In this document: positions 20,170 through 30,335 of the stretch, one piece after another
Layout of the letters: every line of letters begins with the position of its first letter
Position numbering within the stretch: position 1 is the stretch's first letter
NCBI GenBank assembly: GCA_963704655.1
Contig: OY969927.1
Location: 544,001-608,000 of the forward strand
Direction: 5' to 3'
Source of the DNA: an uncultured Candidatus Babeliaceae bacterium
GTDB lineage: Bacteria; Babelota; Babeliae; Babelales; Babelaceae
DNA length: 64,000 bases
Program-made: the position numbers and the translations under genes
Notes under the pieces: generated by a model
The model's input: the letters and a program-made list of their open reading frames with translations, nothing else
Database searches by the model: none
What the model was told of the DNA's origin: nothing

Positions 20170-20222
20170 GGCCTGCCATCTGAAGCTTGCCGAGCGGGAA
20201 CGCCCGGATAAGCGAAAGATGG
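20170..20222. repeat. Family B repeat, long form, overlapping the tRNA-Ala CCA end
   Basis: ggcctgccatctgaagcttgcc..ggataagcgaaagatgg, closely matching 30283-30335. Confidence 0.9.
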
Positions 20223-20295
20223 TGGAGCTGACCGGGATCGAACCGGTGGCCTCATGAATGCCATCCATGCGCTCTACCAACTGAGCTACAGCCCC
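20220..20295 (-). tRNA. tRNA-Ala(GGC)
   Basis: Reverse complement GGGGCTGTAGCTCAGTTGGTAGAGCG-CATGG-AT-GGC-AT-TCATG..GGTTCGATCCC..CAGCTCCACCA; G3:U70 pair; encoded CCA. Confidence 0.97.
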
Positions 20296-20325
20296 ATAAA
20301 ATCATGCGCTTTCAACTGAGCATAC

Positions 20326-20375
20326 CCTGTCCGCCATAGCTTGCCAAGCCGGAAGGCCTGGATAAGCGACGGGGG
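20326..20375. repeat. Family B repeat, long form, inside a degenerate tRNA-Ala 5'-half duplicate
   Basis: cctgtccgccatagcttgccaagccggaaggcctggataagcgacggggg. Confidence 0.85.
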
Positions 20376-20514
20376 AAGCCCCATATTTAAATTGACATAT
20401 TTCAAGAGAATCAAGAATATAAAATAAGTATACTTTTAATTTTTCTAATTTCAATCTAAGCTATCAGACTAATAGTAGTTGTTATATGTAAAAAATTACG
20501 AAAGAGTAAACCCT

Positions 20515-22281
20515 ATGAATTACAAAATAATAGTATCGCTATTGACACTATTGGCTTTGCCAGCACTGTACCCATTTCAGACAAAAACTAAGATTGAGCA
20601 GACTTCTGCAACGCAATCACGCATAGAGATAGAATGTCAATTAGCACCTGACGAAATGCTGTTCCATAACTCAATACAGTTTTCTTGCAATATCCCATCA
20701 ATAAAAATTACCAAATGGTTTGCACTCAAAGATCCGCATACCTATTTTGACCCTCGTTCAAAAAAGTCTGAACCAGTGTACAGTGGATCAGTTATCTTTA
20801 CGCTTATCATTGAATCGCAACAAGAGATCCCTTCTCAAGCGATTATTCATATGTATTATCAAACAAACTTGGTAAAAAATCCGCAAGAAAAGTTTTTCTC
20901 TCTAGGCGCAGCACAGCAAGATGCGCCAACACAAGAGACACAAATAGCAAGCCCAAATGCGGGGCTTAAACTACCACAGGCGCCAGCAAAGAATTATCAA
21001 AAAGCTTCATTCACCCAAACACTTGCACAGATTACTACACAAGTAACTTCGCTTATTAAAGACAAAGAGCTCCCCCTTATTGTTAAGTTTCTTTTGGCCT
21101 TTATTATTGGTCTTATTATGAGCTTAACACCATGTATTTATCCTATGATTCCAATCACCATGGGGATTTTACAAGCAAATAAAGCGCATTCGCTGCTGCG
21201 TGGATTTTCATTGGCGTCAGCATACACCGCGGGCCTTTCTACCACCTTTGCAATTTTGGGAATGATTGCGGCATATGGTGGCGCACAGTTTGGTTCAGCC
21301 ATGGGGTCACCATGGGTTATTGTGCCTATTGTTATCTTTTTTGCCTATCTTGGCTTTTCTATGCTGGGATTTTATGAAATGCATATACCCCGCTTTATGC
21401 AGCCACGCCATGGTCACAAAAATAACGGCTCATTTTTATCTGCGTTCACTTTTGGTATTATCAATGGCACAGTAGCATCACCTTGCTTATCCCCTGGATT
21501 GGCATTAATTTTGGGAATTGTTTCAGGACTTGGGAACCCGATTTTAGGTTTTTTGCTTCTGTTTGTCTTTGGTGTCGGCTCAAGCTTTCCACTACTTGTT
21601 ATTGGAACATTCTCTAGCTCTCTTCATGTTTTACCACGTGCTGGGATGTGGATGATCGAATTCAAAAAAGTATTTGGATTTTTACTGTTAGGCATGTGTT
21701 TATACTACTTAAAATCATTTATGTTTGAATGGGTATACCACCTTGCTTTAGGTTTTTATATCATTATTATTGCAGCATACTATTTACACTATGGCTTTAA
21801 ACACCGTTCATGGTTAGCAAAAATTACCGGCGTCATGTTATGTCTGGCTGCAGCGTTCACCTTAACAGAAAGCTACCGCGTTATTTGGCGCAAAGCTACA
21901 ACTATACAACCGGGACAAAGGCTGGCCTGGCGCGCAGGTTATGAAACAATTCGTGCACAAGCAATCGCAGAGAATAAACTTGTGCTACTCGATTTTACTG
22001 CAGAATGGTGCACATTATGCAAAAAATTGGAAAAACAGTTTTTCAGTGAACAACTTATCTGCCAAGAAATTCCAAAACGCGTTATTCCACTAAAAATAGA
22101 TTGCACCGATAACAGCGGCGTTGAATGTGTTGGCGCACGCAAGAAATTTGGTGTCATGGGCTACCCTGCCATTATCCTTATGGACCCAAAAGATGAAACT
22201 ATCTTACAACGTTGGGACAGCGACCTTAACTACAAAGACCCACAAGAATTTATCAATGAACTTGATAGCTTTATTAAATAA
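20515..22281 (+). CDS. dsbD: Thiol:disulfide interchange protein DsbD
   Basis: LTPCIYPMIP, SPC and LP+AG.WM TM motifs; C-terminal thioredoxin DFTAEWCTLC. Likely ATG at 20515. Confidence 0.9.
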   Translation: MNYKIIVSLLTLLALPALYPFQTKTKIEQTSATQSRIEIECQLAPDEMLFHNSIQFSCNIPSIKITKWFALKDPHTYFDPRSKKSEPVYSGSVIFTLIIESQQEIPSQAIIHMYYQTNLVKNPQEKFFSLGAAQQDAPTQETQIASPNAGLKLPQAPAKNYQKASFTQTLAQITTQVTSLIKDKELPLIVKFLLAFIIGLIMSLTPCIYPMIPITMGILQANKAHSLLRGFSLASAYTAGLSTTFAILGMIAAYGGAQFGSAMGSPWVIVPIVIFFAYLGFSMLGFYEMHIPRFMQPRHGHKNNGSFLSAFTFGIINGTVASPCLSPGLALILGIVSGLGNPILGFLLLFVFGVGSSFPLLVIGTFSSSLHVLPRAGMWMIEFKKVFGFLLLGMCLYYLKSFMFEWVYHLALGFYIIIIAAYYLHYGFKHRSWLAKITGVMLCLAAAFTLTESYRVIWRKATTIQPGQRLAWRAGYETIRAQAIAENKLVLLDFTAEWCTLCKKLEKQFFSEQLICQEIPKRVIPLKIDCTDNSGVECVGARKKFGVMGYPAIILMDPKDETILQRWDSDLNYKDPQEFINELDSFIK

Positions 22282-22284
22282 CAT

Positions 22285-29366: not shown

Positions 29367-29385
29367 ATCTTAACTTTCACAAAAA

Positions 29386-30072
29386 TCATTCTGATAAATT
29401 GAATAGCACAAAGGTATTTTCTTCACCTTGAAGCTTAAATAGATTGACCAGACAAACGACCGACCCACTTACCAAAAATTCACTCAAGGTACTTTTTTTC
29501 AACTGATCCACTATATCTGGTGAAACTTCTTGACCATTTTCTTCAAAAACTCTTCCGATAGTAATATGTGCGCTAAATGGAAAAGCCTGTTTAATCTTAT
29601 ATTTTTCTTCAAGAATCGTACGTATTGCTTGCGCAAGATCAAACAACTCTGATGAATCTTTAAGCTTCAGTACTATGTTATAATAATTTTTAATTTTTTT
29701 GTCATTATAATCGATTTCAAATGTACCCTGCCAGCAATCGATTGCGCCATACGCAATAGAACTTGAAATATCAAATTTTTTATACTGATTGCTTATTACT
29801 TTTAGATCAGATTCCAATTCAGGATTATTTTCTAAAAAGCTCTTAACAGTTACACGTTCTTGCGAAACAAATGCCAACGTTATATGTGCACTATAAGATA
29901 CTTGTTGAAACGTGTAGCCAGCCTGCGATGCAACAGACTCAACTACTTTTGCACTATCTTCTAGTAAGGCTTTTGACTCAACCGGCACTTCTACAAGCAC
30001 TACCACACCTGCAAAAAGAGTATGCCAAATACAAAGAGTTAAAAATAGACCGGTTCTAAAAAACATATTCAT
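29386..30072 (-). CDS. 2H phosphoesterase (LigT / 2'-5' RNA ligase-like) with signal peptide
   Basis: Two HxT motifs (AHITL, AHITI). Likely ATG at 30072 or 30066. Confidence 0.75.
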   Translation of the reverse strand: MNMFFRTGLFLTLCIWHTLFAGVVVLVEVPVESKALLEDSAKVVESVASQAGYTFQQVSYSAHITLAFVSQERVTVKSFLENNPELESDLKVISNQYKKFDISSSIAYGAIDCWQGTFEIDYNDKKIKNYYNIVLKLKDSSELFDLAQAIRTILEEKYKIKQAFPFSAHITIGRVFEENGQEVSPDIVDQLKKSTLSEFLVSGSVVCLVNLFKLQGEENTFVLFNLSE

Positions 30073-30210
30073 GAATCTCGTATAAAGTAAAAAAGAGGAG
30101 CAGATACAAAAACTTCCGCTAACCGTGCTGCTTCTTTTCAGACCTGACACATTATTTAACTGTTTTTTATCTACTCCTCAAGTTTTTTATGCCCAATAAG
30201 TGGCACTAGT

Positions 30211-30243
30211 TCGCTAACCCTTCGACAGGCTCAGGATGAGCGG
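30211..30243. repeat. Family A repeat
   Basis: tcgctaacccttcgacaggctcaggatgagcgg, near-identical to 10409-10440. Confidence 0.9.
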
Positions 30244-30282
30244 ATTGAGACTGGCCCGCCAGGCATTTCTTTCAGGAACGAT

Positions 30283-30335
30283 GGCCTGCCATCTGAAGCT
30301 TGCCAAGCCAGTAGGCGTGGATAAGCGAAAGATGG
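30283..30335. repeat. Family B repeat, long form, overlapping the tRNA-Ser CCA end
   Basis: ggcctgccatctgaagcttgccaagccagtaggcgtggataagcgaaagatgg. Confidence 0.9.

Follow-up and report, generated by a model that had tools for sequence, protein, structure and literature searches.

A hairpin joined to tRNA CCA ends in a Babeliaceae genome: a candidate nuclease-linked element

Two unrelated tRNA genes of an uncultured Babeliaceae bacterium, tRNA-Ala(GGC) and tRNA-Ser(GGA), lie 10 kb apart and run on from their encoded CCA into what looks like the same palindromic sequence. What is this sequence, and how did it come to stand behind both genes? The original prediction, made from the letters of the DNA, offered two answers: (i) a miniature element that targets tRNA 3′ ends or (ii) a co-opted trailer that affects 3′ processing or termination. 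The stretch analyzed here, hereafter the window, spans 64,000 nucleotides (contig OY969927.1, positions 544,001 to 608,000) and belongs to a 1.3-Mb genome of the Dependentiae/Babeliaceae.

The two window copies and their predicted fold

Both tRNA genes lie on the minus strand and encode their CCA. tRNA-Ala(GGC) (20220..20295, CCA at 20220-20222; ARAGORN, and Rfam RF00005 with 64.8 bits) is followed by copy 1, a 51-nt element of the long form at 20169..20219 (−) that was delimited by sequence repeat, fold, and comparison with 10 other copies. Its stem-loop, counted with the tRNA CCA, covers 20176-20222, and its tail, CAGGCCA, covers 20169-20175. tRNA-Ser(GGA) (30333..30424, CCA at 30333-30335; ARAGORN and Rfam) is followed by copy 2, also 51 nt long (30282..30332, −) and delimited in the same manner, with the stem-loop at 30289-30335 and the CAGGCCA tail at 30282-30288. 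In both cases the first base of the element is the base after the encoded CCA. The coding strand continues there as TCTTTCGCTTATCC, a middle of 14 bases in which the copies differ, and GGCAAGCTTCAGATGGCAGGCCA, with 44 of 51 bases identical overall. A 17-mer that includes the CCA occurs exactly twice in the window, as does a 23-mer, for which any match was obtained in 0 of 100 shuffles. One element directly behind the CCA of both genes is confirmed.

Both copies are predicted to fold as a three-tier hairpin, consisting of (i) a 6-bp outer stem in which the encoded CCA pairs with a downstream TGG, (ii) a 4-bp GCUU/AAGC stem, separated from the former by a 3x3 UUC/UUC internal loop, and (iii) an inner stem of 6-7 bp. 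The predicted folding energies are −23.6 and −20.5 kcal/mol (z of −3.5 and −3.4, respectively). The original prediction of identical arms and differing middles holds, and the inner stem remains paired in both middles. As proposed, the CCATCT/AGATGG stem opens with the 3′ CCA of the tRNA itself; the "CCA" written ahead of the element in that proposal is instead acceptor C71-C72 plus discriminator A73. More generally, the outer stem comprises CCA and three bases paired with three bases and TGG, followed by C-N(2-5)-GCC(A). Stem positions 4-6 are occupied by several pair types, the stems are kept by compensatory changes, and the 3x3 internal loop that adjoins the 6-bp CCA stem is conserved.

The predicted pre-tRNA fold bears out the proposed sequestration of the CCA. 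The hairpin probably forms the trailer of the pre-tRNA transcript, with the CCA held in a helix until removal by RNase E/G and exonucleases, and it may affect tRNA 3′ maturation because the CCA is paired in the modeled precursor. Of 141 cases, the complementary strand is more stable in 97, less stable in 36, and equal in 8; it folds no worse than the sense strand, so there is no RNA-strand-specific signal and selection specific to the RNA strand was rejected. An intrinsic (Rho-independent) terminator, defined by a GC-rich hairpin that runs directly into a U-tract, was likewise rejected, as neither window copy has a U-tract terminator or other terminator-like site; the copy behind tmRNA has a T8, located 7 nt past the stem. 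A search of positions 19900-30700 against Rfam (E≤1) returned no family that covers the hairpins. The only matches above gathering scores were the two tRNAs and one SRP RNA, and two further matches were sub-threshold. A riboswitch-like alternative pairing, between TGG and a second CCAxyz after the tail, was dropped as a general feature since it is confined to a minority of copies: the three bases after the tail CCA equal those after the tRNA CCA in 2/24 copies of this genome, 6/60 of other Dependentiae, and 10/60 from outside the phylum, which is above chance.

A second, degenerate unit (30252..30281, −), recognized on reading the tRNA trailers, lies in tandem with copy 2. In its 3′ half and TGGCGGGCCA tail it matches the AT-rich type of hairpin that follows tRNA-Lys(CTT) and tRNA-Glu, and the pairing of its 5′ arm is lost.

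tRNA ends of the host genome and a linked GIY-YIG gene

The hairpin is present at 24 of the 40 tRNA/tmRNA ends of the genome when one mismatch to the motif is allowed. Under the strict motif, the enrichment test set by the original prediction yields 19/40 tRNA/tmRNA ends versus 257/35,346 CCA sites genome-wide. The tRNA bias and fixed junction on which that prediction hinged are both found: all 11 exact-family copies lie at tRNA or tmRNA ends, and the junction of the genome copies is, without exception, the base after CCA. The 11 copies are all exactly 51 nt long and share a mean of 42.1/51 bases, while copy 2 is identical at 50/51 to the one that follows tRNA-Ser(GCT) at another site of the genome. 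Six copies lie away from full tRNAs; each is still preceded by CCA, and one by a 23-nt repeat of the tmRNA end. tRNAs closely followed by a co-oriented gene are, from a reading of the trailers, devoid of the hairpin, a pattern suggesting that its influence on transcripts is relevant.

Complete copies consist of a hairpin, a spacer, a second hairpin, and a gene for a stand-alone GIY-YIG nuclease of ~80 aa of the Slx1/UPF0213 type. The genome contains two such 83-aa ORFs, each behind a hairpin: one begins 55 nt beyond the tRNA-Glu CCA and the other 166 nt beyond that of tRNA-Arg(CCT). No PF01541 match was found in the window, and its two hairpins are solo, gene-less copies. The best matches of the 83-aa protein are UPF0213 BH0048 (1zg2, E 3.7e-4) and SLX1 (7wme, E 5.9e-4), and NCBIfam provides no name for these proteins. 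The residues at the usual GIY-YIG motif positions, which we take to be catalytic, are invariant in 12 homologues. At 83 aa, the protein contains the GIY-YIG domain and has no room for a binding domain.

Between families whose DnaX proteins share 41-45% identity (55% over one partial match), the nuclease linked to tRNA-Glu retains 72-83% identity, and its synonymous sites look near saturation. On these grounds the protein is, as judged from sequence divergence, old and strongly constrained, a property that fits a host function as well. Recent horizontal transfer of the tRNA-Glu cassette was rejected, as the same codon is kept at just 31-42 of 61-67 conserved residues. The tRNA-Arg(CCT) gene ahead of the other cassette is chimeric. 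Apart from two D-loop positions, its bases 1-58 agree with the other Arg(CCT) gene; its final 25 bases are those of tRNA-Arg(TCG), and the switch falls at the T-loop. This gene is counted as a sign of movement.

Occurrence in Dependentiae and other phyla

The layout of tRNA CCA, hairpin, and TGGC-N-GCC was found in 212 of 261 Dependentiae genomes and in none of the remaining 49, with units of 25-60 nt and up to ~27 of them per genome. The nuclease is encoded in 165 of the 261. Among the best 30 nuclease loci, 21 lie ≤360 nt downstream of a hairpin-bearing tRNA or tmRNA and a further 6 lie behind a partial tRNA end. Hairpin number tracks the gene, with 129 genomes having the gene and 24 lacking it among those with at least three hairpins, versus 36 and 72 among the rest (odds ratio 10.8, for genomes that are related and not independent). 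Of the 24 rich in hairpins yet gene-less by this query, 7 have at least eight hairpins and many are incomplete MAGs; conversely, eight genomes possess the gene and no hairpin by pattern. AT-rich "CATT" hairpins occur in 11/17 genomes with the tRNA-Glu-type nuclease versus 24/244 others.

Within one genome, unrelated tRNAs carry one and the same hairpin, down to its unpaired loop; between genomes, hairpins differ. Identical loops among unrelated tRNAs argue for copying rather than independent selection. One congener (G003) has the hairpin at 0/31 ends, AT-rich trailers, and no nuclease gene, and it retains mutated remnants of the family found here at several tRNA ends that are hairpin-bearing in the present genome, including tRNA-Ser(GGA). 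In five hairpin-poor relatives, GIY-YIG proteins are limited to a UvrC-like one of ~430 aa. The flanking genes of congeners are just ~72-81% identical; hence their intergenic DNA is unalignable and exact borders were not obtained, and no strain-level pair of empty and filled sites with exact borders was found.

The layout also follows tRNAs in Alphaproteobacteria, Verrucomicrobia, Acidobacteria, CPR bacteria, and others, with some cultured carriers (Mesorhizobium, Sphingorhabdus). Outside the phylum, true hairpins account for 35 of 82 pattern matches, and a nuclease ORF lies ≤600 nt downstream of 8/35 of these hairpin loci versus 0/45 non-hairpin loci. The eight cassettes share the same modular layout, and in two of them a repeat of the tRNA end follows the ORF. 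A phage origin was rejected: viral contigs yielded no relative of the nuclease, and among 68 viral pattern matches the CCA stem reaches 6 bp or more in just three, of which one is a convincing hairpin, and none is accompanied by the gene.

Candidate mechanism, rival explanations, and related systems

Of the two answers initially proposed, the tRNA-3′-targeting miniature element is favored by the fixed junction, the tRNA specificity, the gene-bearing cassette, and the spread over the phylum and beyond. The window hairpins are probably gene-less copies of a nuclease-maintained hairpin element that is anchored at tRNA ends and works like a REPIN-RAYT system, a reading that draws on the shared anatomy, the co-occurrence with the nuclease, the homogeneity within genomes, the decay where the gene is missing, and the chimeric tRNA. 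A structure-specific nuclease from one or a few master copies, in this genome those behind tRNA-Glu and a tRNA-Arg, would keep the hairpin population alive. The enzyme would cut hairpin or tRNA-end DNA, and the ensuing repair would place copies of the unit at further tRNA ends, akin to the maintenance of REPINs by RAYT transposases; both the action on hairpins and the route of copying are what we infer. Several observations weigh against this mechanism, namely the lack of a strain-level pair of empty and filled sites, gene-less genomes with several hairpins, genomes with the gene and no hairpin, the age and constraint of the nuclease, which fit a host function as well, compensatory stem changes, which a functional RNA would show too, and the absence of the hairpin from tRNAs closely followed by a co-oriented gene, as well as an 83-aa protein that lacks an obvious sequence-reading domain.

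The main rival, which we regard as unlikely, is that the hairpin is a host signal, a selected part of the pre-tRNA, and that small nuclease genes merely lodge at tRNA ends. Such a signal could protect or mask the CCA, define the path through RNase E/G and exonucleases, or stop read-through. A role of this kind would explain why the CCA always sits in a stem kept by compensatory changes, next to a conserved 3x3 loop, and why tRNAs with a close co-oriented gene downstream are spared. It also suits the wide distribution across phyla and the enzymes of this genome, among them RNase E/G and a member of the PolyA_pol family, the kind that includes CCA-adding enzymes, whereas RNase Z gave no match above cut-off. 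Against a host signal, the hairpin is dispensable: 49 of the 261 genomes do without it and the congener G003 has just decayed remnants at several tRNA ends. Nor does it sit well with hairpin abundance that tracks the nuclease gene, identical loops behind unrelated tRNAs, a complementary strand that folds at least as well, or the lack of a U-tract terminator and an Rfam match.

Two further explanations are less probable. It is quite doubtful that the system is a two-part one at the RNA level, in which the small GIY-YIG protein acts on RNA, for example as an endonuclease that frees tRNA 3′ ends or monitors them, with the CCA-sequestering hairpin as its substrate. All characterized GIY-YIG enzymes cut DNA, to our knowledge, and the structural relatives found for the 83-aa protein are DNA structure-specific nucleases. 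The co-occurrence of gene and hairpins and the strong conservation of an old nuclease are in line with this proposal, as is a bacterial fusion of an Slx1-like domain to a TrmH-type tRNA methyltransferase, for which a role in RNA metabolism has been suggested (PMC1564403). Against it stand the absence of the system from many relatives, folding without RNA-strand bias, and the chimeric tRNA and repeated tRNA ends, which are DNA-level events. That the hairpins are attachment-site remnants of tyrosine-integrase islands is very improbable. Integrative elements that target tRNA genes make use of the tRNA/tmRNA 3′ end, of which they sometimes leave a repeat, much as the 23-nt tmRNA repeat, the repeats in two of the eight outside-phylum cassettes, and the T-loop crossover of one tRNA would suggest. 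The present units, in contrast, are tens of bases long (25-60 nt), reach ~27 per genome, and conserve hairpin and tail across phyla; most copies lack a repeated tRNA end, no integrase lies in the unit, and the recurrent linked gene encodes a GIY-YIG nuclease.

The nuclease-maintained element can be placed among described systems. Seg proteins exceed 200 aa and carry DNA-binding domains, whereas the tRNA-end nuclease has 83 aa and a catalytic domain only. SegB of phage T4 is a free-standing GIY-YIG homing endonuclease encoded in a tRNA gene cluster that confers preferential inheritance on neighboring DNA (PMC2330249; PMC13096335). The likeness lies in a GIY-YIG gene lodged among tRNA genes; the present element differs by residing in bacterial chromosomes rather than phages and by its large gene-less hairpin population. 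REPINs are described as short extragenic palindromes with many copies and one "master sequence" per genome; they depend on one conserved nuclease-type gene, present as a single copy and inherited vertically, and decay upon its loss (bioRxiv 10.1101/2021.07.10.451892). By that description, the tRNA-end hairpins resemble them in being many-copy short palindromes of genome-specific sequence that track a conserved nuclease-type gene and are decayed in a relative without it. They differ in that the linked enzyme is an 80-aa GIY-YIG protein and in that each copy stands alone, joined to the CCA of a tRNA or tmRNA rather than scattered between genes, with no REP doublets seen. A RAYT/Y1 transposase partner was rejected, as PF01797 has 0 matches in this genome. 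IS200/IS605-type hairpin elements (PATE) have a Y1 transposase or TnpB partner and insert 3′ of a fixed tetra- or pentanucleotide; Y1 is missing from this genome, and insertion 3′ of CCA is akin to that target rule. Regarding the best sequence matches of the nuclease, SLX1 cuts branched and stem-loop DNA (PMC8287910; PMC4407285). The portion of PMC1564403 consulted describes stand-alone bacterial Slx1-like/UPF0213 proteins as minimal GIY-YIG domains without accessory domains and gives no function, repeat association, or tRNA-end hairpin context for them.

In the literature covered, which leaves out most subscription journals, no description of bacterial tRNA CCA-end hairpins linked to small GIY-YIG genes was found, and the nuclease-linked hairpin looks like a genetic element without a found description. 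If the favored mechanism is correct, (i) stand-alone bacterial GIY-YIG proteins of the Slx1/UPF0213 type gain a function, (ii) a resident nuclease that sustains a hairpin population over long times is found a second time, with a different enzyme, and (iii) the GC-rich palindromes at tRNA CCA ends of many uncultured and some cultured bacteria are explained. A wider version, which we put forward tentatively and with less than even confidence, is a pan-bacterial two-part replicator, the GIY-YIG counterpart of REPIN-RAYT, in which an old Slx1-like nuclease, vertically kept behind tRNA-Glu in Dependentiae, copies hairpins onto tRNA/tmRNA CCA ends. Its anchor would be the most conserved three bases in biology, and each occupied tRNA gene would give a precursor with its CCA end locked in a helix. 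With carriers among cultured Mesorhizobium and Sphingorhabdus, an effect on tRNA 3′ maturation is directly testable. CCA-end palindromes probably also cause MAG assemblies to break at tRNA genes.

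Anatomy and genomic distribution of the hairpin element

The two tRNA genes that ARAGORN identifies in the window, tRNA-Ala(GGC) (20220-20295) and tRNA-Ser(GGA) (30333-30424), are both on the minus strand and, as the original prediction held, run straight from their CCA into the same element, whose arms are identical and whose middles differ. On the coding strand, the CCA is followed in both by 14 identical bases, 14 differing ones, and 23 identical ones ending CAGATGGCAGGCCA. Each common arm occurs exactly twice in the window, and none of 100 shuffles matched the 23-mer. The copies at tRNA-Ala (20169-20219, minus strand) and tRNA-Ser (30282-30332, minus strand) span 51 nt each and are identical at 44 of 51 bases.

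RNA folding yields a three-tier hairpin for both copies (-23.6 and -20.5 kcal/mol, z about -3.5). The 6-bp outer stem joins the tRNA CCA to TGG; inward of it come a symmetric 3x3 UUC/UUC internal loop, a stem of 4 bp, and an inner stem of 6-7 bp whose sequence varies between copies with retention of pairing. The predicted CCA-opened stem exists, with the correction that its CCA is the tRNA's own 3′ CCA. Neither window copy resembles an intrinsic terminator, and no Rfam family matches the window hairpins.

The genome is a single contig of 1,298,077 bp (38% G+C) with 39 tRNA genes and one tmRNA gene, all of which encode the CCA. The check proposed for all tRNA trailers revealed the expected enrichment: counted strictly (CCA and three further bases paired with three bases and TGG in six contiguous pairs, then N(1-7)GCC), the hairpin is present at 19 of 40 tRNA/tmRNA ends versus 257 of 35,346 CCA sites genome-wide, and at 24 of the 40 ends with one mismatch permitted. 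All 11 genome-wide copies of the exact family pattern are at tRNA or tmRNA 3′ ends, and the 11 long-form copies, with a mean identity of 42.1/51, are all exactly 51 nt and lie 3′ of eleven different tRNAs. The junction is fixed, the element is tRNA-specific, and both window copies are ordinary members of a hairpin family, in which the interest lies.

The 10-mer TGGCAGGCCA occurs 21 times in the genome, 14 of them at most 120 nt downstream of a tRNA; most of the other occurrences are 3′ of tmRNA or of short CCA-ended remnants. Downstream of the tmRNA gene come a hairpin, ~130 nt, and then 23 nt that repeat the tmRNA 3′ end, again with a hairpin. One hairpin copy follows a CCA placed immediately 3′ of a protein gene's stop codon. 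By our reading of the printed trailers, hairpin-free tRNAs mostly have a close co-oriented tRNA or ORF downstream, examples being Ile-Ala (rRNA operon), Gly-Thr, Val(GAC), and a Thr gene whose downstream ORF begins MAKE.

Elsewhere on the genome's contig (C1), two 26-nt hairpin copies on the minus strand (435744-435769 and 439951-439976) are exact reverse complements between their CCA and TGG ends, with near-identical downstream flanks and a tRNA (Gln) adjoining only one; the pair is an in-place flip of the palindrome. Just upstream of the window's tRNA-Ala, the inner module (TTATCC, 14 nt, GGCAA) recurs in the opposite orientation (20330-20380, plus-strand reading) within an outer hairpin of another kind (GTCCG...GTAGC type), the kind that forms the second hairpin ahead of the nuclease ORF in complete cassettes; the module thus acts as a nested palindrome in its own right. 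A small bacterial SRP RNA (RF00169, 50.8 bits; 30089-30182, minus strand) lies on the same strand as tRNA-Ser(GGA), about 150 nt downstream and separated from it only by the two hairpin units and another GC-rich repeat. The ORF listed at 29386-30150 overlaps the 3′ part of this RNA, so its real start is probably further in.

Relatives and association with a small GIY-YIG nuclease gene

A context pattern (T-loop, 15 nt, CCA, 18-48 nt, TGGC, 2-5 nt, GCC) yields 1,469 matches in 212 of 261 Dependentiae genomes, and 0-1 per genome in a backwards control. Genomes are internally homogeneous, with the same hairpin, unpaired loop included, common to unrelated tRNAs, which points to within-genome copying rather than independent selection locus by locus. 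Hairpins differ between genomes, and stem positions 4-6 covary between them. In the congener G001, 14 of the 28 tRNA ends examined have a hairpin of this design, the triplet after CCA being mostly GTC there and TCT in the own genome. Orthologues of tRNA-Ala(GGC) have differing hairpin variants in G000, G001, G002, and G004; the variant in G005 is poor, and the hairpin is missing from G003. The latter, a congener without the nuclease gene, has the hairpin at 0 of 31 tRNA ends and AT-rich trailers (33% vs 47% G+C), and the family has decayed there: several ends, tRNA-Ser(GGA) among them, retain recognizable mutated remnants of the own-genome family. The copy at tRNA-Ser(GGA) is therefore old, its integrity having been kept in the own genome and not in G003.

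Two loci depart from this arrangement. At tRNA-Ala(GGC) of one genome (L055, G014), the CCA is apparently not encoded and the hairpin begins directly after the discriminator; C71-C72-A73 serve as "CCA" (stem CCAATC/GATTGG), and a CCA ends the hairpin tail. In another (L106, G232), a sequence like tRNA-Arg(CCT), with a GIY-YIG ORF downstream of it, holds a ~100-nt "CATT"-type hairpin within its T-loop region and not after CCA.

The own genome has ten PF01541 matches. An 83-aa GIY-YIG ORF starts 55 nt after the CCA of a hairpin-bearing tRNA-Glu, a second of 83 aa starts 166 nt after that of a hairpin-bearing tRNA-Arg(CCT), and a decayed third copy is nearby. Relatives of the tRNA-Glu-linked protein are present in 165 of 261 Dependentiae genomes. 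Among the best 30 nuclease loci, 21 lie at most 360 nt downstream of a complete tRNA/tmRNA with a hairpin at its CCA, 5 more behind a hairpin with nothing but a short ...CGCCA-ended piece, similar to the end of tRNA-Glu, in front of it, and 1 behind a tRNA truncated at the contig end. Across Dependentiae, hairpin number is associated with presence of the gene: of the genomes with at least three hairpins, 129 carry it and 24 lack it, and of those with fewer than three, 36 carry it and 72 lack it (these genomes are related, so p-values overstate the association). By the context pattern, 8 genomes without a hairpin have the gene and 41 lack it. Five hairpin-poor relatives have one GIY-YIG match each, in a UvrC-like frame of 422-461 aa. 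The hairpin subtype tracks the nuclease subtype, with AT-rich "CATT" hairpins in 11 of the 17 genomes whose nuclease is of the tRNA-Glu type versus 24 of 244 others.

The closest solved relatives of the 83-aa protein are the UPF0213 protein BH0048 (1zg2) and SLX1. Twelve homologues share invariant Y, Y-x-G, R-L-x-x-H-N-x-G, E, and K residues, which we take to be the GIY-YIG catalytic set. By its closest relatives, the 83-aa protein belongs to the superfamily branch of stand-alone, structure-specific nucleases treated in PMC1564403. Across families, the tRNA-Glu-linked protein is 72-83% identical (DnaX there is 41-45%, or 55% over one partial match) with the same codon at only 31-42 of 61-67 conserved residues, so that the gene is old and constrained, not recently transferred.

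Another class of small GIY-YIG gene (71-117 aa; C1:488366-488671, 482659-482955, 474580-474900, 767552-767905, 375531-375746), presumably more like the YhbQ/UPF0213 type, is present in several copies that have a different GC-rich repeat, GCTCATCCTGAGC...GTCGAAGGG, in inverted orientation on either side. None adjoins a tRNA. Copies of the repeat occur 3′ of tRNA-Ser in the window (about 30200-30251) and nested in the tRNA hairpins of Asn, His, Pro, and Met.

Outside the phylum, one genome per species was scanned with the context pattern and the tail TGGCAGGCC, giving 80 loci and 82 matches among those listed, 35 of the 82 with six or more base pairs in the CCA stem. These 35 listed true hairpins nearly all share an inner motif (two variable bases before CTTCGC, then a loop and GCTWCG), and hosts include Alphaproteobacteria (isolates of Mesorhizobium and Sphingorhabdus among them), Verrucomicrobia, Acidobacteria, Nitrospirae, CPR bacteria, and others. 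Within 600 nt downstream on the same strand, a relative of the small nuclease is encoded at 8 of 35 hairpin loci versus 0 of 45 non-hairpin loci among those listed (Fisher p 8e-4). All eight cassettes run from hairpin through CAGGCCA, spacer, inverted copy of the first arm, and second hairpin to the ORF, and in two of them the tRNA 3′ end recurs beyond it. More distant protein relatives (CPR bacteria, Bacteroidota, Gammaproteobacteria) adjoin a tRNA gene at 10 of 14 loci; at some of these the nuclease gene precedes the tRNA, and at some this hairpin is missing. A search of viral contigs ruled out phages as a reservoir of the element.

Proposed maintenance, alternatives, and possible traces of movement

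The hairpin is probably a nuclease-maintained, tRNA-end-anchored element that works like REPIN-RAYT. The nuclease would recognize the hairpin or tRNA-end DNA and provoke repair that copies the unit onto further tRNA ends, in the manner of RAYTs with REPINs (bioRxiv 10.1101/2021.07.10.451892). Against this stand the 24 Dependentiae genomes with at least three hairpins in which the gene was not detected, the 8 with the gene and no hairpin by pattern, the conservation of the nuclease since ancient times, and the fact that no mobility event with exact borders was observed directly.

That the hairpin is instead a host signal in the tRNA trailer is unlikely: its structural conservation and its absence from tRNAs with a close co-oriented gene downstream would fit such a role, but it is dispensable, co-occurs with the nuclease, and has loops common to unrelated tRNAs. 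Cleavage of RNA by the small GIY-YIG protein is more doubtful still. The complementary strand folds more stably than the sense strand in 97 of 141 hairpins, less so in 36, and equally in 8, which fits a DNA-level palindrome better than a structure of the sense RNA only. An origin as scars of integrase elements is very improbable and does not fit units of this size, number, and conserved form.

The trailer must still be taken off at the RNA level. RNase E/G is present in the own genome, and no RNase Z scores above cut-off there. The genome's only PolyA_pol-family gene (PF01743, 512-aa open frame) is in the window (11529-11906, minus strand); the family takes in CCA-adding enzymes and poly(A) polymerases. 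In the literature covered, which includes few subscription journals, no description of this tRNA-CCA hairpin/small GIY-YIG element was found; the nearest published systems are phage T4 SegB, REPIN-RAYT, and uncharacterized UPF0213/Slx1-like proteins.

A break near a tRNA end may lead to gene conversion, which would carry along part of the donor tRNA 3′ end. Outside the window, directly before a hairpin and GIY-YIG cassette, is a chimeric tRNA-Arg(CCT) (C1:231294-231370) whose bases 1-58 equal the other Arg(CCT) gene save two D-loop positions and whose last 25 bases, which run from the T-loop GGTTCGA through CCA, are exactly those of tRNA-Arg(TCG), with T-stem and acceptor-stem mismatches by our own pairing of the printed sequences. 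Three more hairpins lie within 2.5 kb upstream, each after a short hairpin ending ...GCACCA. Together with the repeated tmRNA/tRNA ends, these features suggest that copying sometimes takes part of the donor tRNA 3′ end along.
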